Shown: positions 14,868-46,575, counted from the stretch's first letter. The stretch: 64,000 nucleotides of DNA from Escherichia coli (GCF_013315695.1 NZ_CP054353.1), one strand, 5' to 3'. Numbers and translations are program-made. Notes: a model not told the origin generated them from the letters alone.

Positions 14868-14877
14868 GGATGGAGCC

Positions 14878-15583: not shown

Positions 15584-18326
15584 TCTTATCCGTCAGGTTA
15601 TCAGTGCGTCTGAAAACAACTGGCCTCATGTGCTGGGCTGCCTGAACATAAATGTCCCTGACTCTCCGCGCCGTCATGCTCCCTGCCCTGCATGTGGGGG
15701 CAAAGATCGATTCCGGTTCGATGACAACGGGCGCGGTAGCTTCATCTGTAATCAGTGCGGCGCTGGTGATGGGCTGGATTTAATTAAACGCGTAAATAAC
15801 TGCGACACAACAGAGGCGGCGCTTCTTGCCGCTGATGTTCTGGGTATTGATTACCGGACAACGGAAACACCAGAAGCCACCAGCCAGAAACGGGAACAAC
15901 TGGAAACCGAGCGCCAGCGACGCGAACAGGAGCGCCTGAAAAGGGCAGAGAAGGACGAACAACAAAGACGGGATACGTTTTCCCGTCAGTTTGATGACAT
16001 GCGCAGAAAGGCTGTAAACGGCAAATCTGATTATCTGGTTGCGAAAGGGGTAGGTGATTTTACATTCCCCGTGTTGCCCGATGGATCTCTGTTGCTGGCG
16101 CTGGTGGATAAATCCGGCGCAGTCACAGCAGCACAGACTATTACATCACATGGTGAAAAAAGACTCCTGACAGGTTCAGCAAAGCGGGGGGCATATCACG
16201 CCATAAACGCGCCAGAAACAACACAGAGCATCTTAATCGCAGAAGGGCTGGCAACGGCATTATCTGCCCATTTAATTCGTCCAGAGGCGCTGACAGTGGC
16301 GGCGATTGATGCCGGGAACCTGTTATATGTCGCCCAGGTACTGCGGGATAAATTTCCTTCAGCACAAATCATCATTGCTGCGGATAACGACCACAGCGAA
16401 GGAAGACAAAACACGGGGAGAATAGCAGCAGAAAAAGCAGCTTTATCTGTTTCTGGATGGGTGGCATTACCCCCGACAGATCACAAAGCAGACTGGAATG
16501 ATTACCACCAAAAACACGGCATTAAATGCGCCACAGAAGCGTTCAATAAGTCAATGTACCAACCACAGGGTAATGGCGTGAAACATGAGCCACAGACCAT
16601 TGAGGGAAGCGATTTTAAGGTTATGGATACCGACCCACTGAAACCAAGAATAGAAAGCCGCGAGGATGGTATTTATTGGGTATCTCCGAGAGCTGACAGC
16701 CAGAGTGGAGAAATCATCAATAACGAAAGCTGGTTATGTTCTCCGTTAAGCGTTATCGGTACTGGCAGAGACGATAAAGACCAGTATCTCATTCTTCGCT
16801 GGCTGTCGTTTGGTTCTGAAACGCCGACAACCGCTGCCATTCCACTGGCTGATATTGGTGAACGTGAAGGATGGCGCACACTTAAAGCTGGTGGGGTAAA
16901 TGTCACGACCAAAAGCAGCCTCAGAGCAATACTGGCAGACTGGCTACAACGCAGTGGCTCTCGTGAATTGTGGCGTGTTGCTCATGCCACTGGCTGGCAA
17001 TGCGGAGCGTACATCATGCCTGATGGGGAAATCATCGGAACACCTGAAAATCCTGTGCTGTTCAGCGGGAGAAGCTCAGCCGCAGCCGGATATACCGTCT
17101 CAGGGAGCGCGAAAAGCTGGCGTGATAACGTGGCGCGTCTGGCCTTTGGTAACTATTCAATGATGACCGGGATCGGCGCAGCACTGGCAGCGCCATTGAT
17201 TGGGCTGGTGGGCGCTGACGGGTTCGGCATTCATTTCTATGAGCAGTCGAGCGCAGGTAAGACCACCACGGCAAACGTGGCGAGCAGCTTATACGGCAAC
17301 CCTGATTTACTGCGGCTGACGTGGTACGGAACCGCGCTGGGGCTGGCAAATGAGGCCGCCGCCCACAATGACGGACTAATGCCGCTTGATGAAGTTGGTC
17401 AGGGCGCTGATCCTGTCAGCGTTTCACAGTCTGCCTATGCGTTATTTAACGGTGTAGGGAAACTGCAAGGCGCTAAAGATGGTGGAAACCGGGATCTAAA
17501 ACGCTGGCGTACAGTGGCAATCAGCACCGGAGAAATGGATTTAGAAACATTTATCGCTACTTCCGGGCGAAAAACCAAAGCCGGGCAACTGGTGCGACTG
17601 CTGAATATTCCGTTGAGTAAAGCAGTACGCTTTCACGATTACCAGAACGGAAAACAGCACGCAGACGCACTGAAAGACGCTTACCAGCATCACCACGGCG
17701 CGTCCGGGCGTGAGTGGATTAAATGGCTGGCAGACCACCAGCAACAGGCTATTAAAACCGTTCGTGACTGCGAAAGCAGATGGAGAAGCCTGATCCCATC
17801 CGATTATGGTGAGCAGGTTCACCGTGTAGCCGCGCGATTTGCCATTCTGGAGGCCGCATTGTTGTTAGGCGAGGTTGTAACAGGCTGGGATGCTCAGACA
17901 TGCCGTGATGCGATACAGCACAGCTATAACGCATGGTTGCGCGAGTTCGGCACAGGTAACAAAGAGCATCAGCAGATTATTGAACAAACGGAGGCATTTC
18001 TTAATGCCTATGGGCTTAGCCGTTTTGCACCATTTCCATACAGCCCGGCAGATTTGCCCATCAAAGATTTAGCCGGATACCGTCAGCGTGGAGAACATGA
18101 CGAAAGCCCAATGATTTTCTACACATTCCCGGCCACATTTGAAAAGGAGATCGCATGTGGTTTCAACGCAAAACAGTTTGCTGAAGTGTTGAAAAAAGCC
18201 GGGATGCTAACCCCACCAAACAGCGGTCGTGGATACCAAAGAAAATCACCACGTATTCAGGGACGACAAATAAACGTTTATGTACTCAATTACCAGCCAG
18301 GAGATTATAACTCATCTGAAGAATGA
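15567..18326 (+). CDS. P4-alpha-like primase/helicase (zinc-binding primase domain + Toprim + NTPase)
   Basis: 919-aa ORF; N-terminal zinc motif CPACGGKDRFRFDDNGRGSFICNQCG; acidic Toprim-like stretch IIIAADNDHSEGRQNTG; nucleotide-binding-like motif later; followed by an iteron array. Confidence 0.8.
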   Translation: MMRNIDLIRQVISASENNWPHVLGCLNINVPDSPRRHAPCPACGGKDRFRFDDNGRGSFICNQCGAGDGLDLIKRVNNCDTTEAALLAADVLGIDYRTTETPEATSQKREQLETERQRREQERLKRAEKDEQQRRDTFSRQFDDMRRKAVNGKSDYLVAKGVGDFTFPVLPDGSLLLALVDKSGAVTAAQTITSHGEKRLLTGSAKRGAYHAINAPETTQSILIAEGLATALSAHLIRPEALTVAAIDAGNLLYVAQVLRDKFPSAQIIIAADNDHSEGRQNTGRIAAEKAALSVSGWVALPPTDHKADWNDYHQKHGIKCATEAFNKSMYQPQGNGVKHEPQTIEGSDFKVMDTDPLKPRIESREDGIYWVSPRADSQSGEIINNESWLCSPLSVIGTGRDDKDQYLILRWLSFGSETPTTAAIPLADIGEREGWRTLKAGGVNVTTKSSLRAILADWLQRSGSRELWRVAHATGWQCGAYIMPDGEIIGTPENPVLFSGRSSAAAGYTVSGSAKSWRDNVARLAFGNYSMMTGIGAALAAPLIGLVGADGFGIHFYEQSSAGKTTTANVASSLYGNPDLLRLTWYGTALGLANEAAAHNDGLMPLDEVGQGADPVSVSQSAYALFNGVGKLQGAKDGGNRDLKRWRTVAISTGEMDLETFIATSGRKTKAGQLVRLLNIPLSKAVRFHDYQNGKQHADALKDAYQHHHGASGREWIKWLADHQQQAIKTVRDCESRWRSLIPSDYGEQVHRVAARFAILEAALLLGEVVTGWDAQTCRDAIQHSYNAWLREFGTGNKEHQQIIEQTEAFLNAYGLSRFAPFPYSPADLPIKDLAGYRQRGEHDESPMIFYTFPATFEKEIACGFNAKQFAEVLKKAGMLTPPNSGRGYQRKSPRIQGRQINVYVLNYQPGDYNSSEE

Positions 18327-18351
18327 GCTTCTTCATGTGCGTAGAAAAGGT

Positions 18352-18452
18352 GTTGGTTCAGTTGGTTCAATTTGTAAAGAGTATTGTTTTATAAGGATTT
18401 TATTCTTTTTATTGAACCAACACTGAACCAACAACACGGTATTTTGAACCAA
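18352..18452 (+). repeat. Iteron array 1 (candidate replication origin/crr-like site)
   Basis: GTTGGTTCA x2 direct (18352-18369), AT-rich spacer, then TGAACCAAC x3 inverted (18413-18452). Confidence 0.6.
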
Positions 18453-18774
18453 CACAATGTGACTGAATTGATGCGCACAACACCTGGCTGGCATCAGAGA
18501 GTGTTTTACGAGACTTTCGTAAAATCCTGTGTACAAGGGCGTGACGTTTTTGAAAGTGAGCACTACGAAATTTTCGTAGTTCAGAAAACAGCCTCTGAGA
18601 AGTTGTTATGCCTGTTCAGCAAACCATCCGCATAGCTGATCGCGAATCAAATTACCAATGGAGCCAGAAGCAAGGGCAGAACTGAAAAGCGCCTGCCGTG
18701 AAGAGTAATGCGACACCATAAATATAGTTTTTAGAGTCCATAAAAAACCTGTCAAAACCTGACACACAGAACGA

Positions 18775-18806
18775 TGCCACCAGCTACTGAGCGGTGGCAT
18801 TTTTTT
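18775..18806 (+). terminator. Rho-independent terminator
   Basis: GC hairpin GCCACCAGCTACTGAGCGGTGGC followed by ATTTTTTTG. Confidence 0.6.
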
Positions 18807-18901
18807 GTGCTATTTGTTTCATATTTTGCAATTACGATGATGAATATTGCGATTTGTGAAACTATAATAACTGTTGTTTTATACAGTTCTAAGGGGGCGT
18901 T

Positions 18902-19063
18902 ATGGCTATTTCAGTAAAGCCGGTATTGATAAGTGAGAAGCAAATGGAAGCGATAAAGAAAATTCAGGAAGAGCAGCGTAAAAAATCAGGAATTGGAGTA
19001 GCGCCAACTCTGCATGAAATTGCACGAGGGTTAATAGATAAGGCGCTGGCAGGCTGTATGTGA
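18902..19063 (+). CDS. small hypothetical protein (53 aa), possible first gene of the downstream operon
   Basis: ATG at 18902, translation MAISVKPVLISEKQMEAIKKIQEEQRKK...; below the ORF-track size cutoff. Confidence 0.3.
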   Translation: MAISVKPVLISEKQMEAIKKIQEEQRKKSGIGVAPTLHEIARGLIDKALAGCM

Positions 19064-19079
19064 AAATGGATGGCATCGC

Positions 19080-19541
19080 ATGGAACTAAAATTTATTGAT
19101 AACCCTGTGCGATTACAGGCCTTTCTTAACGAGCCAGGCAATACCGAAAATATTGTTGAGCCGGGGCACACGTACTACATCAAGCCTGATGCGGTATATC
19201 TCGGCATCTACGAAGGATTAGTGCTGGCTGGCGTTCATGAAGTGCGTAACTTCTGGCATAGCGTTGTTGAATGCCATGCGGTGTACGACCCCGGATTCCG
19301 TGGTGAATATGCACTGCAAGGACATCGATTATTCTGCAAATGGCTTCTCGAAAACTCACCATTCCTTAACAGCATTACCATGGTTCCTGACACCACGAAA
19401 TACGGACGGGCAATTATCCGTTTGCTTGGCGCTACCCGTGTTGGTCATCTTGATGATGCTTATATCAGATGTGGTAAACCCGTCGGCGTAACGCTTTATC
19501 AGTTAACTCGGCAACAATATAAGGAATTCAGCGAATGTTAA
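19080..19541 (+). CDS. hypothetical protein, first gene of coupled operon
   Basis: 153-aa ORF; its stop overlaps the next start. Confidence 0.5.
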   Translation: MELKFIDNPVRLQAFLNEPGNTENIVEPGHTYYIKPDAVYLGIYEGLVLAGVHEVRNFWHSVVECHAVYDPGFRGEYALQGHRLFCKWLLENSPFLNSITMVPDTTKYGRAIIRLLGATRVGHLDDAYIRCGKPVGVTLYQLTRQQYKEFSEC

Positions 19542-20212
19542 TTACCCATATAGCTTATAAACATCTCAATCGTGCCGTATACGAAAAAGGCGGTGATGGT
19601 GGTGCCTCTAAAGCTCAGGCGAAGGCCCAGCAGCAGGCAATTGATTTGCAGCGCGAGCAGTGGAATACGGTGATGAATAATCTCAAGCCGTATGCAGAAG
19701 TCGGATTGCCTGCTTTACAACAACTACAAGGACTGATGACTCTGGAAGGGCAGAATAAAGCCGCGAATGATTTCTTTGGTTCTGGTTTATATAAAACACA
19801 GGCAGATCAGGCCCGTTATCAGAACCTTGTCTCAGCAGAAGCTACCGGGGGGCTTGGCTCAACAGCTACCAGTAACCAGTTATCTTCCATTGCGCCCATG
19901 CTTTATAACAATTGGCTCAGTGGGCAAATGCAAAATTATGGAAACCTGCTAAATGTCGGGATGAATGCGGCATCAGGGCAGGCAACAGCAGGGCAAAACT
20001 ACGCCAATAATACCGGACAACTCTTGCAGGGGCTTGGCGCTATTCGTGCAGGTCAGGCGCAGCAGCCATCCAGTCTTGCGCGTGGTATTGGTGGGGCGGC
20101 ATCAGGCGCTTTAGCGGGTGCGCAACTTGGTTCCGTTGTTCCGGGTATAGGTAATGTCGCCGGGGCTATTGGTGGTGGGCTTATTGGTCTTGTTGGGGGG
20201 CTTGGATTCTAA
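19535..20212 (+). CDS. hypothetical protein with Gly/Ala-rich hydrophobic C-terminus (possible podovirus ejection-protein-like)
   Basis: 225-aa ORF; C-terminal GGAASGALAGAQLGSVVPGIGNVAGAIGGGLIGLVGGLGF glycine-zipper-like segment; TAATG overlap with the next gene. Confidence 0.5.
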   Translation: MLITHIAYKHLNRAVYEKGGDGGASKAQAKAQQQAIDLQREQWNTVMNNLKPYAEVGLPALQQLQGLMTLEGQNKAANDFFGSGLYKTQADQARYQNLVSAEATGGLGSTATSNQLSSIAPMLYNNWLSGQMQNYGNLLNVGMNAASGQATAGQNYANNTGQLLQGLGAIRAGQAQQPSSLARGIGGAASGALAGAQLGSVVPGIGNVAGAIGGGLIGLVGGLGF

Positions 20213-21625
20213 TGGCGACATGGCAACTTGGCGGGCTGCCTAGCATGGCACCGCAAAATGATAATGCTCCTCGTTCTTCCGTTCCTCAGCCTGTGCAGTA
20301 TCAGCAGCAGCCAAACGTAGGTTTAATGGCGCTACAGGGGCTAAGAGGCGTTGCTGAGATTAATCAGCAGGCACGTCAACAACAGCGTAAAGCAGAGTTT
20401 CAGAAAGCATATGCCGGGGCTTTTGAGTCTGGAGACAGAAACAAAATGCGCAGTCTTATTTCTGAGTATCCAGAAGAATTTGAAAGCGTTCAGAAAGGGA
20501 TGGGCTTTATTGATGACGACCAGAGAAATTCTATTGGTCATCTTGCGACTAGTGCTCAAATCGCATCTTCGCTCGGAACTGGGGCATTTGGAAAATTCAT
20601 AGCAGATAACGAAGATGAAATGCGTCGTTTGGGAATTTCTCCTGAGTCTGTTGCCGAAATGCATGTTAATGATCCACAGGGATTCCAGCGGCTTGCTGGT
20701 AGTATGGCACTGTTTTCTCTCGGTCATGAGAAGTACTTCGATATCAAAGATCGAATGGAAGGTCGGGATATTGAGCGTGGCAAGTTGGCAGAGACGATCC
20801 GCAGCAATCAAGCCGGAGAAGCACTTCAGGCGAGAGGGCAGGATATTAGCCGAGCAAATGCGTTAACGTCAGCATATGCACCAACAGCCGCAATGCAGAA
20901 TTACAATCAATACGCGCAAATGTTAAAGGCGGATCCAGAGGGGGCTGCGGCATTTGCGGCAGCGGCTGGAATTAATACAAACGCCAAAAAATTAATGAGT
21001 GTTAGAGAAAACGATGATGGCACTGTCACAAAATACTACACAGACGGAAGTGAAGAGCAGGGAAAACTAAACCAGCCAATATCTGGAGATGGGTTTCGTC
21101 CAATAGCTTTGCCAACAGCCCAAAAGATCATGGAAAAGTCGCCAGAAGGGGCTAAAAAAGCTGCTGGATTTGCATACAGAGTTAGGGATGCTCTTGATTC
21201 AATAGATACACTGAAAGACCAGCTTAGCCCACAGCGAGTGGCGATCATTAATAATGCTTTGGGTAATGGGACGCTGGCTAACTTAACGCTCAGCCCAACA
21301 GAGCAGCAATACGTTGTTAATGCTAATGACGCAATAATGGCAATACTCCGTCAGGAAACAGGGGCATCTATCCTACCAGCTGAAATGTCCAAATATTATC
21401 AAATGTATTTCCCTCAGCCTGGTGATTCCACAAAAACCATTGATACCAAGCGTAGGAAGATGGAAAACCAGTTCAATTCGCTGAAAGCTGCTTCTGGTCG
21501 AGCTTATGATGCTTTGCGGGTTATTTCAGCAGTTGACAGAGGAACTTCTTCTTCGTCGCAGACATTGCCGCAATCTGAGCAGGTATCACAGCCAGCAGTA
21601 ATTTTTCTTCACTATGGGGTGATTA
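20212..21625 (+). pseudogene. coupled-operon gene 3, 3' end interrupted by IS1 (ancestral product ~474 aa)
   Basis: Open frame runs into IS1 at 21626; rejoining the split target duplication gives native end ...HYGVING-stop, overlapping the ATG of the 701-aa gene now at 45798. Confidence 0.6.
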
Positions 21626-34110: not shown

Positions 34111-34824
34111 CTATTCCTGTTTAAAGGCAGGAGTAATAGTGTCTTCACCTTCACTACTTGATTTTTCAGTGTTAACACGTTTTTTCATATTCGCCCCGAT
34201 GTTCTTAGATGGCTGTGTTTTGATAGCTACAGTGTTTACAGTACCATAAGAAACTAATCTTATTTGTTCAAAGCTAAGATCAAATACCAGGGATTCGCTT
34301 GCCTCTTCTGTGTATTCGATGCCTGTTAAAACAACGTTCTCAAAAGTTTTATTTTCTGTAACAAGAAGAAAAGGCTGTCTACTGTCCATAATCTGATTCA
34401 AGTAGTCTATAGCTAATGATCTTCTGTTCCCGTTCACCCCTGCACTCTTTAACAAGCCAGGATCGCTTTTAATCGGTGTTTCAGTGATACGCCCTTTAAG
34501 AGAGAACTTATTGTTTTTAATTTGAACGTGATCAGACACAGTAGCACCATTTTCTACGGGGTAGCTTGTGACATCTGCCGAACGTCTCACGTTCACATCG
34601 TCAACACTATCAAAGGCCAGTGCCATATAATTTTCATAAACGTCATTACCAGAAGATGCCAAGCCACTGGTAACAATAGCAAATCCGTTCTCTCCTTTTG
34701 TTTTATTAGCTTTGCTATTTTCGTTTTTTGTAGAATTTATATCTTGTTCTGCTTTGTAAACAGCCTGAACGTGTTGTTCTGGAGTATTTGCTGCACGTAT
34801 GGTTAAAATCCCGGCGGTCGCCAT
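34111..34824 (-). CDS. hypothetical protein (AT-rich accessory gene)
   Basis: 237-aa ORF, low GC, immediately downstream of the 326-aa ORF on the same strand. Confidence 0.5.
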   Translation of the reverse strand: MATAGILTIRAANTPEQHVQAVYKAEQDINSTKNENSKANKTKGENGFAIVTSGLASSGNDVYENYMALAFDSVDDVNVRRSADVTSYPVENGATVSDHVQIKNNKFSLKGRITETPIKSDPGLLKSAGVNGNRRSLAIDYLNQIMDSRQPFLLVTENKTFENVVLTGIEYTEEASESLVFDLSFEQIRLVSYGTVNTVAIKTQPSKNIGANMKKRVNTEKSSSEGEDTITPAFKQE

Positions 34825-34846
34825 AATAATAATTTTCCTTGTAATG

Positions 34847-35799
34847 TTATGGCGGGAATTCCCCGCCGTTGGATTGTCCTGATAAGCTGGTTAATGTTAA
34901 TGATTTCAAGAAGCTATCCCGACTTGCTCTCGCTGTAAAATCCACATAATCGCTCAATCGTCCGGTGTCTGATTCGATAGTTAGCGGCACTTCTGTTACC
35001 ACTTCAAATGTAGGATTCAGATTAAACACAGGAGATAAATTATAAGCTGGAGTTGTCATTGCAAGATTATTTAAAGCACCCTGTTTGAGATTGGTTATCG
35101 GTGCTTCATTGACTGACATTTTTACATCTGACACAGAAGAATTATCATCGAAAAGCAATCCCTTAATTGTGTTAAAGAGAGAATGACTATTATCAGGTGT
35201 AGTTGTTGCAGTGCCAGCGCCTTTATATTGATTAGGAACGAGATTAGAAAGATTCTGTTTCATCCCTTCATTGCTTAATGGCGGTGCATCACCCATATTT
35301 TTCTGAATAGCATCTGTCTTATCATCATTACGATTAAACCAGTTTACAATCTTCATAATAGCTTCAAAGAGACTTCCTGTAGCTTCTCCCAGCTTCGTAA
35401 AATACGGAGTGAGATTAGAAAGGTTTTTCATAAACTCTTCCGTTACTTTTGGATCGAGAGATTTCATAAAGCCGTCTACGAATGCTACTTGTCTTGCATC
35501 AGAAAGCTGTGAAAGCTGTCTGTTTAGTTCTCTGAATTTAACAATAGAGTCTTGCTGTGTTTCTGTTAGCCATTTTCCAGAGGCTTTTTGCTGATTAATA
35601 CTTTCTTGTACATCTTTAACGGAACGTTGCCAATATTTTGACGTAAGCATCAAATCATCGCCCAGGTCTTCTAAACGTTGTCCAATTTGGGAGTCTGAAA
35701 ACCCTTTTTTCATCATTCCATTAACAGCCTTAGAAATTAATCCAGCCGGATTATCAGCAAATTTTTTAAGGTCGCTTTTGTTAATAACACCGATGTTTA
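34847..35799 (-). pseudogene. hypothetical protein, 5' end truncated by IS2
   Basis: Open frame continues to the IS2 boundary at 35800; the annotated Met at 35827 lies inside IS2. Confidence 0.55.
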
Positions 35800-37130
35800 T
35801 AGACTGGCCCCCTGAATCTCCAGACAACCAGTATCACTTATTTAAGTGATAGTCTTAATACTAGTTTTTAGACTAGTCATTGGAGAGCAGATGATTGATG
35901 TCTTAGGACCGGAGAAACGCAGACGGCGTACCACACAGGAAAAGATCGCAATTGTTCAGCAGAGCTTTGAACCGGGGATGACGGTCTCCCTCGTTGCCCG
36001 GCAACATGGTGTAGCAGCCAGCCAGTTATTTCTCTGGCGTAAGCAATACCAGGAAGGAAGTCTTACTGCTGTCGCCGCCGGAGAACAGGTTGTTCCTGCC
36101 TCTGAACTTGCTGCCGCCATGAAGCAGATTAAAGAACTCCAGCGCCTGCTCGGCAAGAAAACGATGGAAAATGAACTCCTCAAAGAAGCCGTTGAATATG
36201 GACGGGCAAAAAAGTGGATAGCGCACGCGCCCTTATTGCCCGGGGATGGGGAGTAAGCTTAGTCAGCCGTTGTCTCCGGGTGTCGCGTGCGCAGTTGCAC
36301 GTCATTCTCAGACGAACCGATGACTGGATGGATGGCCGCCGCAGTCGTCACACTGATGATACGGATGTGCTTCTCCGTATACACCATGTTATCGGAGAGC
36401 TGCCCACGTATGGTTATCGTCGGGTATGGGCGCTGCTTCGCAGACAGGCAGAACTTGATGGTATGCCTGCGATCAATGCCAAACGTGTTTACCGGATCAT
36501 GCGCCAGAATGCGCTGTTGCTTGAGCGAAAACCTGCTGTACCGCCATCGAAACGGGCACATACAGGCAGAGTGGCCGTGAAAGAAAGCAATCAGCGATGG
36601 TGCTCTGACGGGTTCGAGTTCTGCTGTGATAACGGAGAGAGACTGCGTGTCACGTTCGCGCTGGACTGCAGTGATCGTGAGGCACTGCACTGGGCGGTCA
36701 CTACCGGCGGCTTCAACAGTGAAACAGTACAGGACGTCATGCTGGGAGCGGTGGAACGCCGCTTCGGCAACGATCTTCCGTCGTCTCCAGTGGAGTGGCT
36801 GACGGATAATGGTTCATGCTACCGGGCTAATGAAACACGCCAGTTCGCCCGGATGTTGGGACTTGAACCGAAGAACACGGCGGTGCGGAGTCCGGAGAGT
36901 AACGGAATAGCAGAGAGCTTCGTGAAAACGATAAAGCGTGACTACATCAGTATCATGCCCAAACCAGACGGGTTAACGGCAGCAAAGAACCTTGCAGAGG
37001 CGTTCGAGCATTATAACGAATGGCATCCGCATAGTGCGCTGGGTTATCGCTCGCCACGGGAATATCTGCGGCAGCGGGCTTGTAATGGGTTAAGTGATAA
37101 CAGATGTCTGGAAATATAGGGGCAAATCCA
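35800..37130 (+). mobile_element. insCD: IS2 (1331 bp, complete)
   Basis: Ends TAGACTGGCCCCCTGAATCTCC ... GGAAATATAGGGGCAAATCCA; InsC (35891..36256) and InsD (36214..37119) match canonical IS2; no 5-bp target duplication. Confidence 0.95.
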
Positions 37131-37493
37131 TTAACACATAAGCAATCAGTATGATTGGTTAGGTGATTACTCTTACTGCGCACAGCGCAATAGATTTCTT
37201 CGTGGGCGTTACCGCCAACGAAGTTACACGAAGAAAGTAACGCTTTGCTTTCGGTGTGAGCGGAACGGGCCAGCCACGAAGCCCGAAAGGTAGCGGAGTA
37301 AGGCTGCTTGCCAGAGAGTGAAGCTAACGCCGGAAGGCAAAAGATCATATATATAGATATAAAGAATATTATTATTATGATCTAATTAATAATCTAATAT
37401 AGTTTTATTAATAGTCTTATTGTAGTTCACAGTGACCTACCCCCTAGCTCACTATGACCTACCGTTACTACCAATCATCACATAGCACTCACT

Positions 37494-38277
37494 CTGTGTA
37501 ATGCCTTTCTATGTGTGTGCCATAATCCCCTATATTCCCTGTGTAAATCATAGAATATCCCTAACTTATTCCTGTGTAATTCCATACTAAAAATTCAATG
37601 AAAAGTAGCTTAAAAGTGCAATTCTTACTTTCTTCACTTTTACATCACTTTCGCAAATCCTTGTGTAGTGCGGCCTACAGAGCACCATCAGAAATTGTTG
37701 GCTAAAAATTGTTCTGCTTGTTTCTTAACGAGTTTTCTCGTTTGTGCAAATTTTAAAATTTATTTTGTTTTTACAGCCTTATTTCGTGTAATGCGTGGCA
37801 TAGCAAGCCCTTTTCTTGTGTTGTCAAGACATTTGGCAACGTTCAAACATCTGTTTAGAAATGCCAAATTGTTGATCTAACAAATAAACCTGTATAAACA
37901 GAACACCATTTAATCTATTCCCCTGTGTAATCCACTACATCACACAATAAAAACAAAAAAACCTTTAATTATGTTTCATAGCATACAAAAGTCAACAGAA
38001 GCCCTCTCGTGCTCCTACGTAAAAAATCCATCACTTTTCCCCTGATACATCAACTCAAGGCGTTCTATGTGTTCCTTAGTGCATATTACGTTTATTATGT
38101 TAAATTGATTTTGGCCTATATTTTGACCTGCACCCGCATAAACACTGGTTTCATCGCTTACACTCCTTGTGAGACGTGGTGCTGTTTCTAGCATCTGATC
38201 CGACATAAAACCGATCATTCTCGTGTTTAGTGAAAGTTTAGTGAGAGACATTACAGAAAGGCTTTCTGTGTAATGAT
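37494..38277 (+). repeat. Dispersed C(T/C)TGTGTAAT motif family in AT-rich non-coding DNA
   Basis: CTGTGTAAT-like copies at ~37494, 37539, 37572, 37783, 37924, 38269; nearby direct repeat (G/A)TGACCTACC at ~37430-37470. Confidence 0.5.
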
Positions 38278-38424
38278 TTAATAGGTAAAAACGATGTTGA
38301 TTACGCAAGAAAATTCCTTGCTGATATTTGGGGATTCTGGATTTTCCAGATCGGGGGGCGCTGAAAATCGCGTTAAGCACCTCTCGCAATCTAGCCATAA
38401 GGGAAGGGATATAGGTATTTAGAT

Positions 38425-38590: not shown

Positions 38591-39723
38591 TTAAGGTTTT
38601 CCGTGTTCTCTTCTGCATTATGAAAATGCAAAATAAGGCACAAAACAAGCGCACAGACGCATTAAACACACATCACCTATACATCCCTATACCAAGCAAT
38701 GAAAATAGCGTTAGAATGCGTCCTGTTGCGTTCTGGAGATTTTCAGAAATCCTCTCTAAGCCATTTCAACTCATTAAGGAGTTTTCTTTCTTCGTTCTCT
38801 CTCTGTTTACGCTCTAGCCAGGCTTTTCCTTCTGGCGTAGACAGGAACTTACGAGCGTGAATCTTGCGGTTATTACGTTTGATAGCTGCAATGTTTTTCA
38901 TCGTGTGCCTCTGTATTCATATGAAAATTAACAAGTTACATACTACACAGGGAGACTACGCATAAAACACAATACAAGTAAAGATACATTTTCAAGACAA
39001 TAGGAGCCATAAAGCGCCTTTGATGGGCTACCCCAAAAAATAAGCGCCGTAGGCGTATCCACTAAAAGGGCTTTTTCACAAAAGCTATGAAGTCTTAGCA
39101 GTTCTTCTCTTATCAGGCACCCGTTGTACTCCGGTGGACGAAACCGTGCTAGAGCTTGATTCTTTCCCGATCAAGTTAGGTTTTGAAGAGGTGGGCTTTG
39201 ATCCACTATTGCACTTAAAACTCTTCCCATCATTTAGCCTGTTTATCCTCTGCAACGTCTCACGACGTGTAGCATCATTGGACACCGCGCCAGGTGTGGA
39301 ACATCTTGCTAAGAGTTTTGGTAGAAGGTTTAGAGACGGTGGCACGTCTTCCAGCTTCAAAGGAACTTGTTACGAGGTTGAGCCTGGGAACTACTCGCCC
39401 ATACGTGTTACACTACCAAAGCCCATAACAACGTATAGGCGTTTGTAAGTGATAACAGAAGATACAATTTCTTAGAGAAGTTAAGCTAAGTTATTGATTT
39501 TCTTGATTGTGCGATAATAGGAACAATACACATAGGCGATAAGCTTTGTTTTTGTTGCCTTTTTTATTGTTCATTTTTTATAGATACCCCCAAAAGTACC
39601 CCCATATCTTTTTCCGCCCCTGAAATTTGGTTGTTATTCATACAGCATATCAGGCGGTAACGCTCTCCCTTTAACCCACTTATTGTATGATAGTGCTATC
39701 CCACAATAAGGAATCAGCCAGCC

Positions 39724-40083
39724 ATGAGAATGACCAGCCGCAAAAAAGAGATACTTAGCTACTTTGAACCGGATAACCTCGAATGGGTGACTGGTGAGAT
39801 TGGTGCGCCGCCGTTCGATGTGTCGGGTGTGGCCTACCTGCTTCATGGCATGGTGTCGTTCGATAAGCGTCACCAGCTCGAATCAACCCGGCGCACACTG
39901 GAAAGCATGGTTGCTGGTGGACTGCTTGAGCGGGTGACAGTGTATGAATCGCGCCAGATACGGCGCGGCGGTGATACTAACGCAACGGTCGTGCGCTACG
40001 GTTTACCCGGTCAGTGCGCTGTTATGCGCGATACTGGCGGCGCTGACAACGCAATATCAGGTGAATACATGCGGGTCAGTTAA
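39724..40083 (+). CDS. hypothetical protein
   Basis: 119-aa ORF with normal GC content. Confidence 0.4.
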   Translation: MRMTSRKKEILSYFEPDNLEWVTGEIGAPPFDVSGVAYLLHGMVSFDKRHQLESTRRTLESMVAGGLLERVTVYESRQIRRGGDTNATVVRYGLPGQCAVMRDTGGADNAISGEYMRVS

Positions 40084-40618
40084 TAGCCTGCAATCTGTCG
40101 TTGATGCGGCTCAGGTCGTAAACCCGGCGTTCAATATCCAGCATCAGGAAATTGTGGATCTCGGCCTGCTCAGGATTATCAGACTCTCTGGCCTGTAATA
40201 GCAATTCATTGTAACCATGCAAGCCGCCTGAGTTTTCCGCCGGGGTGGTGCCTTTCCCACGCAGGCAGCTAATGGGCTGATTACTCGTATCGTGTGTTTG
40301 CTTCTCCAGCACAATGACGCAATCCCACCAGTCGCCAAAGTCATACGTGTAAACCAGCTTGTCACCCTCATTCTGGAGCGCCGCCCATAGTGGCGTGATT
40401 GCCGCGTTACCCATGCTTTCATCCTCACCCCATACGCGATACTCGCTACCTGGATCACCTTTACGCCCTTTCTCGAACATATACAGGTGTTCGTCATTCC
40501 AGCCAAAAGCTAACTGGATCACGGCATGAAGTTTACTAAAGGGGATTTGCTCTGGAACCAGCACACGCCGCCATATAGGTGGTTTGCTGTCTCGGATGGT
40601 TATCTTTAGCTGGTACAT
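40076..40618 (-). CDS. pRiA4b ORF-3-like family protein
   Basis: 180-aa ORF MYQLKITIRDSKPPIWRRVLVP...; N-terminal motif recalled as typical of the pRiA4b ORF-3-like (PF07929) family. Confidence 0.5.
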   Translation of the reverse strand: MYQLKITIRDSKPPIWRRVLVPEQIPFSKLHAVIQLAFGWNDEHLYMFEKGRKGDPGSEYRVWGEDESMGNAAITPLWAALQNEGDKLVYTYDFGDWWDCVIVLEKQTHDTSNQPISCLRGKGTTPAENSGGLHGYNELLLQARESDNPEQAEIHNFLMLDIERRVYDLSRINDRLQAIN

Positions 40619-40738
40619 GCAAATCCTGAATAAATGCGAATCGGAAGGATAACGATACTGACGTACTCACAATTCTGTAAAGGTGAATAAAGGAAATTTG
40701 CTTAATACGCATAAGTTACATGTGGAATAATCCCATAT

Positions 40739-40924
40739 CTACCTGCGCGGCGCTGGCTTCTTCCACTGATAGGCAGGTGCTCGCATCATTTCGCGGAACC
40801 TGTCGCGCCGGGCTATATCGGCATTAACTGATCGTTCTATCTCCCGTTGATCTGCCTGTGTAAGCTGGTGGCCTCCGTGCTCAAGTTTGGCGATGGTCAA
40901 TAAGGCTATTTCGCGTGGTGTCAT
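40739..40924 (-). CDS. small hypothetical protein
   Basis: 61-aa ORF. Confidence 0.3.
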   Translation of the reverse strand: MTPREIALLTIAKLEHGGHQLTQADQREIERSVNADIARRDRFREMMRAPAYQWKKPAPRR

Positions 40925-41221
40925 ACGTCATACCCTCTGGAAGAATGAAACACGCCCGGATTAAATTTCATTTTTCGCGGGTATAAAAAAACGATGGGGC
41001 GGGCAGTCCCGGATAGTCAGGGCTGTAGAGATTTGACTACCCCCTCCCCACTGGATTCAGGTTACTGCTATTCCGTTAAGCGCTGCTTACGGGGATAGCT
41101 GCGTTGTGATTTTGACCATTCAGGTCGCCGCTATTTCCTCACCGATTGGGTGCTACGCGCGCGCGTACTTGTCCCGAAATACCAGAAACCGCCAGCCAGA
41201 GGATGATTTCCCTCTGGTGGT

Positions 41222-41503
41222 CTACCTTTGCCTCTTGCCGCCATTTAACCGGAAGGCGTTACCGTTCGGTTGCGCTATCCCCATGCGGTGTTGCGTTTCG
41301 GTAACAGCTTTATGCAGGTCGCCAAATTCCTCAACCTTCACGGGCGGGCGCTTCACGTTCTCCAGACACGTTTCACGGCGGCGCTTTATCCATTCCCGAT
41401 CATCGTCCTCGGTGCATAACAGCATGACTTCCATCCATCGTGCGGCAGCTCTCCGGTATAGCCCTTTTGACTCCAGCTCTTCAGCTTTCCTGTCCCTTAT
41501 CAT
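41222..41503 (-). CDS. PerC-family transcriptional activator
   Basis: 93-aa ORF MIRDRKAEELESKGLYRRAAARWMEVMLLC..., resembles PerC/Pch proteins of prophage islands. Confidence 0.6.
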   Translation of the reverse strand: MIRDRKAEELESKGLYRRAAARWMEVMLLCTEDDDREWIKRRRETCLENVKRPPVKVEEFGDLHKAVTETQHRMGIAQPNGNAFRLNGGKRQR

Positions 41504-41539
41504 TTCTGCCTCTCAGATTATATAGATAAGCAAAAAGGT

Positions 41540-41678
41540 GTTGGTTCAGTTGGTTCAGTTGGTTCAGTTGGTTCAGTTGGTTCAATTTGTAAAGATTGTT
41601 GTTTTTATTGTGTTTTTTCTGAAATATTGAACCAACATCAACTCATTTTGAACCAACACAGCCCAGCTCTGAACCAAC
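41540..41678 (+). repeat. Iteron array 2 (paralog of array 1)
   Basis: GTTGGTTCA x5 tandem (41540-41584), spacer TTCAATTTGTAAAGATTGTTGTTTTTATTG, then TGAACCAAC x3; the spacer aligns with array 1. Confidence 0.65.
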
Positions 41679-41780
41679 AACACAGCGATAGATTTGTGAT
41701 TGGTCCGTTATTTTCTGGCTGATATTTGAGCGTATAACAGTGTTATACAGTGGTATACTGTATGGATATTACTCACTGAT

Positions 41781-42236
41781 ATGGTCTTTGCAATGAGCAA
41801 ATCTAATCTGGTCGCGTTCCGCATCCCATCTGAATTGCAGGATGAGTTTAATCGGTCTGTTCTCGCTTCTGGAGGAGATAAAACCTCCTGGCTTGTTGAT
41901 GCGATTCGCATGAAGCTGGGGCAGCCGGAAAAGTCTATTGATTCACGAATGCTTGGGCTGGTGGAGCGCATGGAAAAAGCCGCTGCGTCGCTTATTGCCG
42001 GAAAGCCGAACATCCCACCAAAACCATATAACGAAACGGCAGTTATAAAGATCATTGCCGATACCATCCAACAGGGATTTGATAATGGGCGTGTGATAGC
42101 TGAACGGATCAATGAAGCAGGCTATCAAACAAAAGCTGGTAAAGCGTGGGATAAAGATATTTACAGCGCGTGGAAGCGTCAGGGAAGCAATGCTGAAAAG
42201 CTAAAAGCAGTGATTGATTGTAAGGTCAGCGTATAA
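41781..42236 (+). CDS. putative ribbon-helix-helix DNA-binding protein adjacent to the iteron array
   Basis: 151-aa ORF; N-terminal SNLVAFRIPSELQDEFNRSVLASGGDKTSWLVDAIRMKL fits an RHH (Arc/MetJ/CopG-like) pattern. Confidence 0.45.
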   Translation: MVFAMSKSNLVAFRIPSELQDEFNRSVLASGGDKTSWLVDAIRMKLGQPEKSIDSRMLGLVERMEKAAASLIAGKPNIPPKPYNETAVIKIIADTIQQGFDNGRVIAERINEAGYQTKAGKAWDKDIYSAWKRQGSNAEKLKAVIDCKVSV

Positions 42237-42315
42237 ACATGAGTGCCCATTGGAAAGTTGCTTGGGCCAATACCTTTATACACCAGCAGGTAGTGACGAT
42301 AGGTGAGGATCAGAT

Positions 42316-42537
42316 ATGAAAGGCAGAACGCCACACATTGAACATCAAGCCAACCACTTCCCTGATGTTCGCAATGAGATGATTGCCATTCGCGGTGATA
42401 TGCACGGATTGGAGCGTCGAATTATTGATAAGATTGATGAAAATAGAGATAAGGCCAGTGAAAATCAAAAGTGGATCATCGGCCTGTTGATTTTATCAAT
42501 TCTTATCCCGCTACTTATCGCATTGGTCACAAAATGA
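42316..42537 (+). CDS. small tail-anchored membrane protein
   Basis: 73-aa ORF with C-terminal hydrophobic helix WIIGLLILSILIPLLIALV. Confidence 0.35.
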   Translation: MKGRTPHIEHQANHFPDVRNEMIAIRGDMHGLERRIIDKIDENRDKASENQKWIIGLLILSILIPLLIALVTK

Positions 42538-43058
42538 ATATCCAATGTGTATGCTGTCGATGCTACGCGCGCGTACTTGTCGCAAAATATCAGGCAAAGG
42601 CCAGATTCAGAAAGTCGTGATAACCACCAGCACAACATGAGAGGTCATGTAACGCGATTTATCACACCAGATACATGTGATTGGTGTACCCGCATAAAAC
42701 ATCGTCATAGCGCGTCCTGTGCGCATATACGCCGATAATCAACACATCACCACCACTCTGTCTCATGTAGAGAACAGTTTTATGGTATCCCCCGCCATCG
42801 TGTGCGTACTGGTCGGACGCAGTTGCAAAAAATTTTGCAACTGATACCCCTCGCGCGCGTACTGGTCACGAAATTGGTGTTTTGCTGTGGCAGTGATATC
42901 AGAAAAATCTTCCTGTTTCACATAAAGCGGATATGCGCGTACTGTAACGGCCCCATCAACTGGGAGCGGACTTGAAATCCCGACCCAAGCTATGTACCAA
43001 ATGCCATGTCTTGGATATATGATGATTGCCATTCTAAACAACGCTAAAGGGGGTTGGT

Positions 43059-43673
43059 GTGAGCAGAAAAGATACTAAAGAATTGCTAACTATCTGCATG
43101 GTGTACTTTTCAATTTATTTTTGTGCATACATGATAGTCCCAGATGAGTTTGAACATGGCAGTATTATTTATTCCATAACATTCTATTTTTTAGAGCTAA
43201 CACCAATTTTGGCTATCCTTTTGGGAATACATATTTATTTTTCCTTAAAAAAAGAATCGACTAATTGGGAGAAGGTATGGAGAGACAGAGGATTTCTAAC
43301 ATCACCTAAAGATGATGCATATGAGAGTGATTTTTCTGACTTTATAACAAACTACTACTCCAGCGAACAATTCAAAAATAGACTGTCTGATGTTTGGGAA
43401 ACAGCAATGTATTCCATAGGGATTATATTATTGATACTTACTGGTATTGCTCAATATGTTTTTAACATTGACTTATCATTAAATCCTGAAAATTTAATAT
43501 CGCCATTGATTTTTGGTGAGATATTGATCTTCTCATTCGGAATTTTCTTGAGTGTTGTTCTCTGCTCATTATGCAAGCTACTGACTAACAGGTATCCGGG
43601 TGAAGCAAGGAGAGCAAGAAAGGCAAATCCATATTATCTTTTATTTCCTAATGGAGACAGCAGAGATATCTAA
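43059..43673 (+). CDS. AT-rich multi-pass membrane protein (candidate exclusion/accessory moron)
   Basis: 204-aa ORF with about four hydrophobic helices, strongly A/T-biased codons, GTG start. Confidence 0.5.
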   Translation: MSRKDTKELLTICMVYFSIYFCAYMIVPDEFEHGSIIYSITFYFLELTPILAILLGIHIYFSLKKESTNWEKVWRDRGFLTSPKDDAYESDFSDFITNYYSSEQFKNRLSDVWETAMYSIGIILLILTGIAQYVFNIDLSLNPENLISPLIFGEILIFSFGIFLSVVLCSLCKLLTNRYPGEARRARKANPYYLLFPNGDSRDI

Positions 43674-43692
43674 GCCATCCATGGCTAACCAG

Positions 43693-45798
43693 TTATTGAG
43701 CTTCTTTTTGTGATGCCTGTGCGACTCTGGTGAGCGATTGTGTGACCGTACTGATCGCTCTGTCATATGCTGTGCTACCTTTTGGCGTATTTGCCAGACG
43801 TAACAAGGCATTTCGTATAACAGGGCTTTCGTATGCCTTCGCTGCTCCGCCTACGGCACCAGCAGCAGGAACAACAAACGCAGCCGTTTTTAGCATCCCC
43901 GCTAATACTGCTGCGTTTATGATGCCACCACCAACTAACAATCCATAAAGCTGCTGACCATTTAAGTTTTGAACGTTCGCTTTTGCCGCGTGTCTTGTAT
44001 CGTTGAGGTATTTAATAACGCCGTCCAGTTCCTTTCCATGTACGCCTTTAAAGAAAGTTGCTGATTGCTTCCTGTTCCGGTGTAACGCATTAATAAACTT
44101 CTCAACACTGATATTTCCAGACGGATCAGTCGCCTTATCTACAGCATTCTGAACTATGGCTGCTCGTGCGTTTTGCCTACCATTGTCATCCAGAAGCCTG
44201 TAAAGCTGAGAACGTTCTGATGGGCTTTGGCTAAAAACGAGTTTTGTTACATCCTCAGGCGTGGCCTTACCGCTGGCTATTGCCTTTTGAACGCGCGTTC
44301 TTCCCATCATGTCATTGAATTTAGACCATGACCGATCAACCCTTGCCATATTAATGGCTTCGTCTGCTCCAAGATTTTTGGCTACGGCTTTTTTCATATC
44401 CGCCGTATATGCCTTGTAGATAATATCGCTGGCTTTCTGGAGCGTATCTTTATCAACAGTGTCAGATGACGCCATAAATCGCTTTCGAAGATCGGTTCTG
44501 TTTTCCCTCGCCAGACGCAGGTCATTTGGTCCGCTGGTGATATCGTCTTTAAATTGCTGCAAGACTTTTACCGCGGCTCTATCCTGAGATTTGCCCGGGC
44601 GGCTTAACACGGCAATCTGATTGTCGATAGCTTTTACCGTGTTTGAGAGATCGACAGGGGTATCCCCCATAGCGTCAATTATGCGGTTATATCGCTTTCC
44701 TGCTGCCTCAATGAATTTTTGTTGCCCTTTAGTCGCAGATTCATAAAGCTGTTTATCAGAAATGCCACCCAGACCATCGCTAAATGTTCTGACTAAATTT
44801 TCTCGTGCTTGTTGTTGATTCAGCCGATTCTTACCGGTTCCAAAAAAAGGAACTCTTTCGCCTAATGTCTGAGCCTGACTCTGCATAAAGGTTTTATCTT
44901 TCAGCATGTCACTGGTCATTAACGGCAGATTTCTTTCCGATGCAAAGTTGACAGCAGCCTTTGCTTCAGGCGACATATCACCACGAACAGCCCTCGAAAC
45001 CGCACTCGCTGTATTTTCCAGCCCCTTACCAATACCACCAATGCCAGCAGAAATTACCGTTTGTAACGGATCAATATCTTCTCCACCAGCAAGGCTGGTG
45101 GCTCCCTGTAGTGCTAAATCTGTAGCTGCTGATTTTCCTATGGCACCAAGCACCGTTCCAGCCCTGCCCGCTGGTGTAAACGCCAGCGCATTAGCCAGAA
45201 ACGATGCCACGTCTTGCGGCGATAAACCCGGCTTGTTCAGAGCATAATCACCGGATGGCAGGGAAACGATAGTGTTACCCTTCTCATCCTGCCTTAATTT
45301 CGCTCCCATGCTCTGAAGAATCTTTTCCTGAGATGCGTCAGAGCCGAAAAGTTGAGACCATCGAGCTTTTAGAGCACCCATGCTGAGTGAGGTTAACTCT
45401 GGGGCAAGGTCGACATTTTGCAGTCTCTCCATCTCTGGAGTCATTCGGCTTTCGCCTGTTATAGCATCGCGCATCGCAGCCCCAAGACTGGCTCCCTGTT
45501 CTGCTGAACGCTCAAGCCCCTCTCTTTGCTGAGTAGCTAACTTTGCATACCCTGACGCAAGAGAATTATCAGATGATGTATGTTGAATATTTTGAGTTGC
45601 TGATTGGGATCGGTCTATTTCATTCGTTGATGGTAGTGGATAGGCAGCATAAAAAGCCTGCTTAGCCTGCGCTACACTTTCTCCGGCTTGCGGGGCCACG
45701 ACTTCATTGAAGTATTGCTCCTGAGCCTGCGCTTTTTGTTCTGGTGCTAACGCCTGATACTGTGGAGAGGCGATAACATCTTTCCATGCTTTAGCCAT
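43693..45798 (-). CDS. large alpha-helical protein, fourth gene of the split coupled operon (possible ejection/internal virion-like)
   Basis: 701-aa ORF; ATG 9 bp from the IS1 copy 3 boundary; the flanking 9 bp is the reverse complement of the duplication at IS1 copy 1; Gly/Ala-rich hydrophobic segment near the C-terminus. Confidence 0.6.
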   Translation of the reverse strand: MAKAWKDVIASPQYQALAPEQKAQAQEQYFNEVVAPQAGESVAQAKQAFYAAYPLPSTNEIDRSQSATQNIQHTSSDNSLASGYAKLATQQREGLERSAEQGASLGAAMRDAITGESRMTPEMERLQNVDLAPELTSLSMGALKARWSQLFGSDASQEKILQSMGAKLRQDEKGNTIVSLPSGDYALNKPGLSPQDVASFLANALAFTPAGRAGTVLGAIGKSAATDLALQGATSLAGGEDIDPLQTVISAGIGGIGKGLENTASAVSRAVRGDMSPEAKAAVNFASERNLPLMTSDMLKDKTFMQSQAQTLGERVPFFGTGKNRLNQQQARENLVRTFSDGLGGISDKQLYESATKGQQKFIEAAGKRYNRIIDAMGDTPVDLSNTVKAIDNQIAVLSRPGKSQDRAAVKVLQQFKDDITSGPNDLRLARENRTDLRKRFMASSDTVDKDTLQKASDIIYKAYTADMKKAVAKNLGADEAINMARVDRSWSKFNDMMGRTRVQKAIASGKATPEDVTKLVFSQSPSERSQLYRLLDDNGRQNARAAIVQNAVDKATDPSGNISVEKFINALHRNRKQSATFFKGVHGKELDGVIKYLNDTRHAAKANVQNLNGQQLYGLLVGGGIINAAVLAGMLKTAAFVVPAAGAVGGAAKAYESPVIRNALLRLANTPKGSTAYDRAISTVTQSLTRVAQASQKEAQ

Positions 45799-45807
45799 TA
45801 ATCACCC

Positions 45808-46575
45808 GGTGATGCTGCCAACTTACTGATTTAGTGTATGATGGTGTTTTTGAGGTGCTCCAGTGGCTTCTGTTTCTATCAGCTGTCCCTCCTGTTCAGC
45901 TACTGACGGGGTGGTGCGTAACGGCAAAAGCACCGCCGGACATCAGCGCTATCTCTGCTCTCACTGCCGTAAAACATGGCAACTGCAGTTCACTTACACC
46001 GCTTCTCAACCCGGTACGCACCAGAAAATCATTGATATGGCCATGAATGGCGTTGGATGCCGGGCAACAGCCCGCATTATGGGCGTTGGCCTCAACACGA
46101 TTTTACGTCACTTAAAAAACTCAGGCCGCAGTCGGTAACCTCGCGCATACAGCCGGGCAGTGACGTCATCGTCTGCGCGGAAATGGACGAACAGTGGGGC
46201 TATGTCGGGGCTAAATCGCGCCAGCGCTGGCTGTTTTACGCGTATGACAGGCTCCGGAAGACGGTTGTTGCGCACGTATTCGGTGAACGCACTATGGCGA
46301 CGCTGGGGCGTCTTATGAGCCTGCTGTCACCCTTTGACGTGGTGATATGGATGACGGATGGCTGGCCGCTGTATGAATCCCGCCTGAAGGGAAAGCTGCA
46401 CGTAATCAGCAAGCGATATACGCAGCGAATTGAGCGGCATAACCTGAATCTGAGGCAGCACCTGGCACGGCTGGGACGGAAGTCGCTGTCGTTCTCAAAA
46501 TCGGTGGAGCTGCATGACAAAGTCATCGGGCATTATCTGAATATAAAACACTATCAATAAGTTGGAGTCATTACC
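45808..46575 (+). mobile_element. insAB: IS1 copy 3 (768 bp, complete)
   Basis: Terminal repeats GGTGATGCTGCCAACTTACTGAT ... ATCAATAAGTTGGAGTCATTACC; InsA 45863..46138, InsB 46057..46560. Confidence 0.97.

Follow-up and report, generated by a model that had tools for sequence, protein, structure and literature searches.

Homologues of phi92 tail-initiation genes in a conserved 12-kb mobile element family of Escherichia coli

Introduction

What are two AT-rich genes, lodged between an integrase and an insertion sequence in an Escherichia coli genome, and to what did they once belong? We addressed this question for positions 34111-35799 of a 64,000-nucleotide stretch of E. coli DNA (hereafter the window), in which two co-oriented open reading frames (ORFs) encoding 326 and 237 amino acids (aa) lie beside a tyrosine integrase gene. 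A sequence-only reading of the window had assigned neither product to a nameable family and had taken the pair for accessory genes of exclusion, defence or surface modification. Here, we identify the two genes by homology as tail genes related to those of phage phi92, trace them to a 12-kb integrative element that is widespread in E. coli, and weigh whether this element family is a satellite of large virulent myophages.

Results

The 237-aa product is encoded by an intact gene at 34111-34824 (minus strand) and matches the phi92 protein gp135 in the Protein Data Bank (PDB; 21vq_N, Phi92_gp135) with E = 2e-78 over residues 11-219. It also matches 9cuy_K ('Tube initiator protein / Dit-like phage tail protein', E = 3e-13), 7yfz_a ('Pam3 tube initiator gp17', E = 1e-6) and PHROG 817, and it contains the Pfam domain Dit_like (PF21821; E = 5.6e-29, residues 71-198, model positions 1-126 of 127). 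The Prokaryotic Genome Annotation Pipeline (PGAP) names it a 'phage baseplate protein' (WP_000179449.1), and the protein is identical in strains AF3, 2014C-3061 and MSB1_4I. By homology, then, it is a Dit-like tail tube initiator, the counterpart of phi92 gp135.

The 326-aa ORF matches PHROG 16051 ('tail length tape measure protein') with E = 7e-24, at positions 349-659 of 660. Its intact relatives in other genomes are 609 aa long (loci L002 and L003), and a full-length relative matches PHROG 16051 with E = 6e-53 and PDB entry 21vq_V (Phi92_gp134) with E = 5e-38. The window fragment corresponds to residues 298-609 of the 609-aa protein, with the stop codon changed from TAA to GAA and the residues EFPP added, and PGAP flags it as 'incomplete, missing N-terminus'. 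When phage genomes were searched with tblastn, the only matches of the tape measure were to its counterparts in myophages of ~145-150 kb that are phi92-like, phAPEC8-like or related to these. In phi92, gp134 is annotated as a 'potential tape measure protein' with a 'predicted coiled-coil fold' and adjoins gp135 in the same order as in the window. The ORF is thus identified, by sequence similarity, as the 3' part of a tape measure gene homologous to that of phi92 gp134. Pfam gave no match for the tape measure protein, and NCBIfam gave none for either protein of the pair. The significance of the matches to the solved phi92 proteins (2e-78 and 5e-38) indicates that both are real genes and not chance ORFs. 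Both products thus fall into families that can be named.

The two ORFs are separated by 22 nucleotides (nt), both on the minus strand, and the guanine-plus-cytosine (GC) content of 34111-35799 is 38.2%, versus 47.8% for the whole window. They converge on the intact integrase gene (32695-34029, plus strand; PHROG 1, E = 1e-32), for which PGAP places the start at 32752 (WP_024190322.1). On the other side lies IS2 (35800-37130, plus strand; 1,331 bp, from TAGACTGGCCCCC... to ...GGGGCAAATCCA), which sits within the tape measure gene, and the reading frame of that gene is still open at the boundary, position 35799. This arrangement is as the sequence-only reading had described it. The ORF as listed (34847-35827) begins at a TTG codon, and its first 9-10 codons (MSGDSGGQS-) come from the end of IS2, so the true remnant is a pseudogene of 316 codons at 34847-35799 (minus strand). 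A hairpin with a 9-bp stem (AAAGAGGCT...AGCCTCTTT), read directly from the sequence at 34037-34069 between the convergent integrase and tube initiator genes, is probably a bidirectional terminator; a simple terminator scan did not call it.

Complete copies of the element in other genomes are ~12.3 kb long, with the integrase on the plus strand and a late operon on the minus strand. Counted from its 3' end, this operon encodes the tube initiator, the tape measure, a 67-aa protein, a 342-aa capsid protein and proteins of 120 and 70 aa. Beyond the 70-aa gene lie a promoter and a structured leader, followed by genes for 111-, 135- and 91-aa proteins, a 230-aa Rep-like protein, and 55- and 62-aa proteins. 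Past the 62-aa gene come a ~2-kb gene-free gap with iterons, a serine invertase gene in some copies only, and the far attachment (att) end. The tube initiator gene lies directly 3' of the tape measure gene in the window, in phi92 and in all elements examined except L031 and L032, where it is missing or, in L032, degraded. In every intact copy of the element, the tail pair forms the last two genes of the conserved late operon and is not accessory cargo.

The capsid protein belongs to Pfam Phage_cap_E and is ~20-22% identical to phi92 gp124. It is, with the tape measure and the tube initiator, one of only three recognisable virion proteins in the element, the small ORFs being uncharacterised; across the family, PHROG and precomputed Pfam matches revealed no portal, terminase, sheath, tube or lysis gene. 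The Rep-like protein is a winged-helix protein that matches replication initiators in PHROG (270, 428 and 186). The iterons are 22 bp long (TAGTTCACAGTGACCTACCCCC), and there are five of them in the intact type A element (L003 22427-22534) and two in the window (37423-37463). They are probably the origin bound by the Rep-like protein. Locus L009 has no iterons, and the N-terminus of its Rep matches protein 184 of phage inny (inny_184), suggesting a joint change of Rep and iterons.

A consensus sigma-70 promoter (TTGACA, 17 nt, TAATAT) precedes the late operon (L003 18584-18932 and L006 8537-9526, both minus strand). The leader that follows it is ~250 nt long, or 990 nt in the second E. coli type (type B, described below), and contains a terminator-like stem as well as hairpins. 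Conceivably it acts as an antitermination switch or is a non-coding RNA; Rfam revealed no credible RNA family anywhere in the element, this leader included.

In order to determine how common the element is, we searched 5,426 complete E. coli genomes, the set also used for the junction searches described below. Pieces of the element occur in 775 of them (~14%), among them O104:H4 and O111 strains, and in 233, 80% or more of the 12.3 kb is present. Twelve further loci hold 14-15 genes in the same order, with variation found mostly in Rep, the 55-aa gene and the invertase. The places with full coverage all span ~12-13.6 kb, and no larger version was seen among the E. coli genomes. The genes for the tube initiator and the tape measure show ratios of nonsynonymous to synonymous substitution (dN/dS) of 0.04-0.2 and are under purifying selection.

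Three types of integrase serve four att sites: thrW (L002, L006, L007), srsR (L003), leuX (L009) and glyU (L010), the leuX and glyU copies differing in their integrase. In strain NCTC10973 (L003), the element is inserted in the LysR regulator gene srsR and bounded by a perfect 52-bp direct repeat (12548-12599 and 24935-24986). Its integrase is ~96% identical to those of the copies integrated at thrW, and the att cores are only loosely alike (TTGTCGGATAAGTATTAT versus GTGCCGATAATAGGAGT); the srsR insertion is either a secondary-site integration or a switch of att site.

Beside type A (e.g. in strains NCTC10973 and 2010C_5028), a second type of element in E. coli (type B, e.g. in O104:H4 strains such as FWSEC0009) has an integrase 95-98% identical to that of type A, with tube initiator and tape measure 60% and 63% identical, respectively. 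At the capsid position, it encodes an unrelated 343-aa protein, only 16-20% identical to the type A capsid protein (L006 6905-7936 and L007 6909-7940, both minus strand). Type B apart, the capsid proteins of the elements are 51-72% identical. Among 1.84 billion representative proteins, 73 clusters at 50% identity match the tape measure. The relatives of 599-625 aa that we examined belong to loci arranged alike (119 aa, Phage_cap_E, 62 aa, tape measure, Dit_like, integrase) on chromosomes of other backgrounds, whose flanking DNA, where measured, has 54-57% GC; tape measure identity between the E. coli types and these variants is 26-36%. Some copies are broken: IS3 is inserted in L002 and ISVsa5 and IS600 elsewhere, and in L026 and L027 (7813-10001) a ~2.2-kb interruption of the tape measure gene, independent of IS2, ends where the gene resumes at about residue 278.

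We considered whether the element had already been named or seen in another form. It is not Sp1 or Sp2 of strain Sakai, nor CP4-6 of K-12, the gene content being different. Matches in IMG/VR were rejected as virome particles; they are proviruses predicted in isolate genomes.

Several features tie the element to phi92 and its relatives at the level of composition and DNA. The element has a GC content of 39%, versus 37.5% for phi92. Three separate patches of nearly identical DNA, in different element variants, connect it to the region of genes 184/185 of the Justusliebigvirus phage inny, found also in phage muut: L003 20788-21017 is 97.8% identical, L009 4000-4625 is 97.4% identical over 626 bp, and L006 11160-11420 is 93.5% identical. 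Such patches of 93-98% identity, common to the element and to virulent phages, are recent. The 55-aa element protein equals inny_185 at 53 of 53 aligned residues. The phage protein inny_184 is a two-domain winged-helix protein whose gene opens an early operon, and Rep variants of the element match parts of it with 87-89% identity. When the small proteins of the element were compared by tblastn with the phi92 locus and two-thirds of the inny genome, the only element proteins with matches were the tube initiator, the tape measure, the capsid protein, the Rep-like protein and the 55-aa protein. The iterons were not found in that same portion of inny or in the phi92 locus searched.

A non-coding motif of 34 nt (GGGCGCTGAAAATCGCGTTAAGCACCTCTCGCAA; window 38356-38389, plus strand) is also common to the element and to Justusliebigvirus phages, and none of 100 shuffled sequences matched. 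At 34-46 nt, it occurs once in most element variants (e.g. L003 23770-23806, L012 1501-1546) and in inny at 138,625-138,667; in many Justusliebigvirus phages, it is 95-100% identical and lies within a gene-free region of 1.8 kb. Its role could be in packaging, as an origin or as a promoter. A second motif of 22 nt, shared with the same gene-free phage region, is collinear and in the same orientation in L003 (21698-21719) and inny (137,363-137,384); it is deleted in the window.

The protein similarities are less uniform. A variant in a genome of 57% GC encodes a tube initiator 82-83% identical to those of Klebsiella myophages and only 47-49% identical to those of the E. coli elements, indicating exchange with local phages at least once. 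The tape measures are 24-34% identical to phage tape measures. A pairing of type A with Justusliebigvirus and of type B with Phapecoctavirus is not claimed here, the respective identities being 57% vs 54% and 49% vs 45%. Taken together, the copies form a conserved, mobile and replicative 12-kb family that is linked in sequence to Stephanstirmvirinae and is not debris.

The copy in the window has fared much worse than its relatives. In strain AF3 (L001), an IS2 insertion at the identical position has kept its GTTTA duplication, and beyond it the tape measure gene still has its 5' half. In the window, the left flank ends ...GATGTTTA and the right flank begins TTAACACAT, with no 5-bp duplication, and the sequence to the right of IS2 corresponds to L001 from position 18515 onward, 6,413 bp being gone beside the right end of IS2. 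The target duplication is therefore missing because the deletion abuts the right side of IS2, and its retention at the same site in AF3 indicates that the deletion is secondary. The left IS2 junction occurs in two of the genomes searched (AF3 and MSB1_4I) and the right junction of the window in MSB1_4I only, the genome that the window matches. The sequence-only reading had noted the missing duplication and the open frame and had supposed the 5' part to be deleted or moved; comparison with AF3 decides for deletion.

IS2 split the tape measure gene after codon 297, and the adjacent 6.4-kb deletion came next. An IS2-mediated adjacent deletion is the simplest mechanism that we can infer for the loss; recombination with a second, transient copy of IS2 would give the same result. 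Lost with the deletion were the capsid gene, the Rep-like gene, the 67-aa gene and six further small genes (120, 70, 111, 135, 91 and 55-57 aa), together with the 5' half of the tape measure gene and part of the gene-free origin region. The genes missing from the window are present in intact copies, and the tape measure frame, broken here, is complete in L002, L003 and others. Also within the deleted stretch falls the sole mapped promoter of the operon, the sigma-70-type promoter upstream of the 70-aa gene in L003. A promoter scan around the remnant yielded 9 sites, against an expectation of 5.2 +/- 2.3 from shuffled sequence; with a count no higher than chance, the scan gives no evidence for expression of the surviving tube initiator gene. 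Only this gene and the integrase survive intact. The window copy is dead, and the tail pair has no obvious role there; by itself, this copy is an ordinary remnant wrecked by an insertion sequence and of no importance.

Its ends can still be recognised. The left end (32590-32669) is an att remnant resembling the 3' end of thrW (TGGTGCCGATAAGAGGAGT...CCTACGACC), homology with other copies of the element beginning at 32655 (ACTAATTGATTGAAT). To the right of IS2, a gene-free remnant of the origin region (37131-37937) matches L003 22132-23063, and the right end (39494-39524; ...TTGATTTTCTT / GATTGTGCGATAATAGGAAC) is a degenerate thrW-like att core.

The surroundings of the element have also been rearranged. 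The thrW gene lies at 8784-8859 (plus strand), and two IS1 copies, inverted relative to each other, are found at 21623-22394 and 45801-46575. The segment between them (ykgM/O, ecpC'DE, ykgJ, yagU, the element and a further islet) has the reverse order of that in L002 and K-12, suggesting an IS1-mediated inversion of ~23 kb, as a result of which the element would no longer adjoin thrW. In the stretch 32000-32590, a 61-aa ORF and a C-terminal fragment of an integrase (32425-32583) come directly after yagU. The paoABCD-yagP block present at this place in L002 and K-12 is missing, which points to a deletion or to a junction of tandem islands. The islet past the right end of the element (39525-45800), which ends at IS1, has genes for a PerC-family regulator, a pRiA4b ORF-3 family protein and a hypothetical protein of 701 aa. 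A further island lies between thrW and the first IS1 (~14000-21600; L015 1-7600), with genes for a TOPRIM/DUF927 primase, a DUF2824 protein and, frameshifted, a 'phage DNA ejection protein'. Possibly this is another satellite-like element, unrelated to the first.

Discussion

The question of what the pair once belonged to has a plain answer in the 12-kb element; what the element does is a matter of weighing. We favour, by a modest balance of probability, the view that the family is a satellite of the large virulent myophages of the Stephanstirmvirinae (phi92-like and phAPEC8-like phages and their Klebsiella relatives), dependence on such a helper being suggested by the sequence ties. The general features of satellites are present: an integrase with att sites, a Rep and iterons of its own in intact relatives, and an incomplete set of virion, packaging and lysis genes. 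In the window copy, two iterons are left and Rep is gone.

If the family is a satellite, infection would be followed by replication of the element from its own Rep and iteron origin and by expression of two pairs of proteins: for the head, the 120-aa protein and the lambda-E-type capsid protein, and for tail initiation, the tape measure and the tube initiator. The baseplate hub of the helper would be the site at which the tail pair assembles and nucleates the tube and sheath of the helper, and this would either provide tails for the use of the satellite or divert the tail assembly of the helper. In its most specific form, the proposal is that undescribed satellites of Enterobacterales parasitise virulent ~148-kb Stephanstirmvirinae, carry a tail-initiation pair together with a capsid gene, and remodel or commandeer both head and tail of the helper; we put this forward tentatively, its chances being somewhat short of even.

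The closest comparison is with the phages themselves. The gp134-gp135 pair of phi92 and other Stephanstirmvirinae (Justusliebigvirus, Phapecoctavirus) is homologous and in the same order, the phage pair being chains of PDB entry 21vq. The element tube initiator is 57-60% identical to its phage counterpart over the full length; for the tape measure, identity is 50% in the first 66 residues and ~31% thereafter. Unlike these phages, the element is integrative, spans 12 kb and lacks genes for hub, tube, sheath and fibres, and its tape measure is 50 residues shorter (609 vs 659; only 298-609 in the window copy).

Among known satellites, phage-inducible chromosomal islands, or PICIs, together with their capsid-forming relatives (cfPICIs), resemble the element most, in their size (~12 kb), terminal integrase, integration at transfer RNA (tRNA) genes, a Rep and iteron origin of their own, exchange of the integrase and Rep modules, and synteny kept across Enterobacterales; as in cfPICIs, there is an own capsid gene (Phage_cap_E). 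However, PHROG and Pfam searches with all element genes revealed no AlpA, Pri-Rep primase-helicase, small terminase or packaging-redirection gene, although one variant carries a DEAD-type helicase. The portal, protease, head-tail connector and terminase of cfPICIs are absent as well, and the element has tail genes, which cfPICIs lack by definition because they take their tails from the helper. The candidate helpers differ too, being virulent 148-kb myophages and not temperate phages.

PLE, the satellite of the virulent myophage ICP1 in Vibrio cholerae, resembles the element in being integrative, in being tied to a virulent myophage with which it shares sequence, and in remodelling virion assembly. 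It has no sequence relationship with the element, and it redirects the coat protein of its helper by a scaffold, encoding no capsid protein, tape measure or tube initiator. PLE is mentioned in a paper on Pakpunavirus (PMC12846349), which is not about the element described here. P4-like satellites share the size (~11-12 kb), a tRNA-targeting integrase and a wide occurrence in E. coli, and one of them, Sp2, belongs to the island array associated with thrW in O157 Sakai. The element has no alpha primase, sid, psu or delta, and its structural genes are entirely different. In the Tai systems (PMC11364771), genes of satellites or prophages likewise act at tail assembly. That study is not about the element either, and, by description, the element proteins differ in being full-length homologues of the tail components themselves.

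Several observations weigh against the satellite proposal. We know of no described satellite with tape measure or tube initiator genes, and the proposed role of the tail pair is accordingly without precedent. Our literature search returned no description of the element family or of satellites of these phages, although accounts in journals outside the search are possible. In the element, we identified neither a packaging signal nor a small terminase or helper-sensing regulator. With an identity of only ~22% to phi92 gp124, co-assembly of the capsid protein with the portal of the helper is speculative, and the 343-aa protein of type B had no tblastn match in 50,697 phage records. The tape measures of types A and B are nearer to each other (63%) than to those of phages (24-31%), so only the tube initiator tracks the phages. 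Stand-alone contigs of ~12.2 kb, which could have been circular or packaged forms, were rejected as such, their ends being tRNA/att repeats (leuX, glyU) at which the assembly breaks. Finally, any function is moot for the window copy itself.

The alternatives have to be judged against the same evidence. It is improbable that the family serves in anti-phage defence by mimicry, the tail pair acting as poison subunits that enter a phi92-like baseplate and block or misdirect tail assembly, with an outcome similar to that of the Tai systems of satellites; packaging would then not be needed. A competitor would have to resemble the local phage version, as the tube initiator does (57% in E. coli, 82-83% in the Klebsiella-like variant). 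Interference with a helper is normal for satellites such as the Staphylococcus aureus pathogenicity islands (SaPIs) and PLE. Interference of satellite or prophage genes with tail assembly is documented (PMC11364771). But PADLOC, applied to the tail pair and the other late genes, gave no defence matches, and both tail proteins retain their full length and run colinear with those of the phages, no domain being obviously lost. Defence alone also leaves the capsid gene, Rep and the origin unexplained, and a satellite that needs the tails of its helper would harm itself by blocking them. Defence of the decoy type is nevertheless compatible with a satellite lifestyle.

Also unlikely, in our judgement, is that the elements are decaying remnants of a temperate relative of phi92, with the structural genes as leftovers and the 12 kb as what survived. 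The genes are indeed plain homologues of phage structural proteins, and many copies are broken, by IS3, ISVsa5, IS600 or IS2, by the insertion in L026 and L027, or by degradation of the tube initiator in L032. Decay does not sit well, however, with a layout of 14-15 genes that is kept in hundreds of genomes and in other backgrounds despite a tape measure identity of 26-36%, nor with the purifying selection on the genes, the three integrase types at four att sites, and the own Rep and iteron origin. The uniform size of the full-coverage places, with no larger version seen, and the recent patches of DNA shared with virulent phages argue in the same direction.

That the pair are integrase-proximal accessory genes unrelated to virion structure, as the sequence-only reading had proposed, fits the adjacency to the integrase and the low GC content and is nonetheless very improbable given the highly significant homology to solved virion proteins, the Dit_like domain, the place of both genes in a conserved late operon and not in a variable cargo slot (the variable region being Rep, the 55-aa gene and the invertase end), and the empty PADLOC result. 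That reading had set its proposal against clear homology to structural proteins of intact prophages; the homology is clear, but it leads to virulent phages of 148 kb and to a 12-kb satellite-like element and not to intact prophages.

In summary, behind a wrecked copy in one genome stands an element family that is common in E. coli, seemingly unnamed, and tied by sequence to the group of phi92 and phAPEC8. Should the satellite proposal prove true, virulent coliphages would have their first such satellite, which would also be the first of any to encode tail proteins, specifically those of tail initiation, raising the question of how tail assembly can be hijacked. The family would also represent a new means by which genes are transferred in E. 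coli and Klebsiella, and a possible source of resistance to, or interference with, phages of this group.

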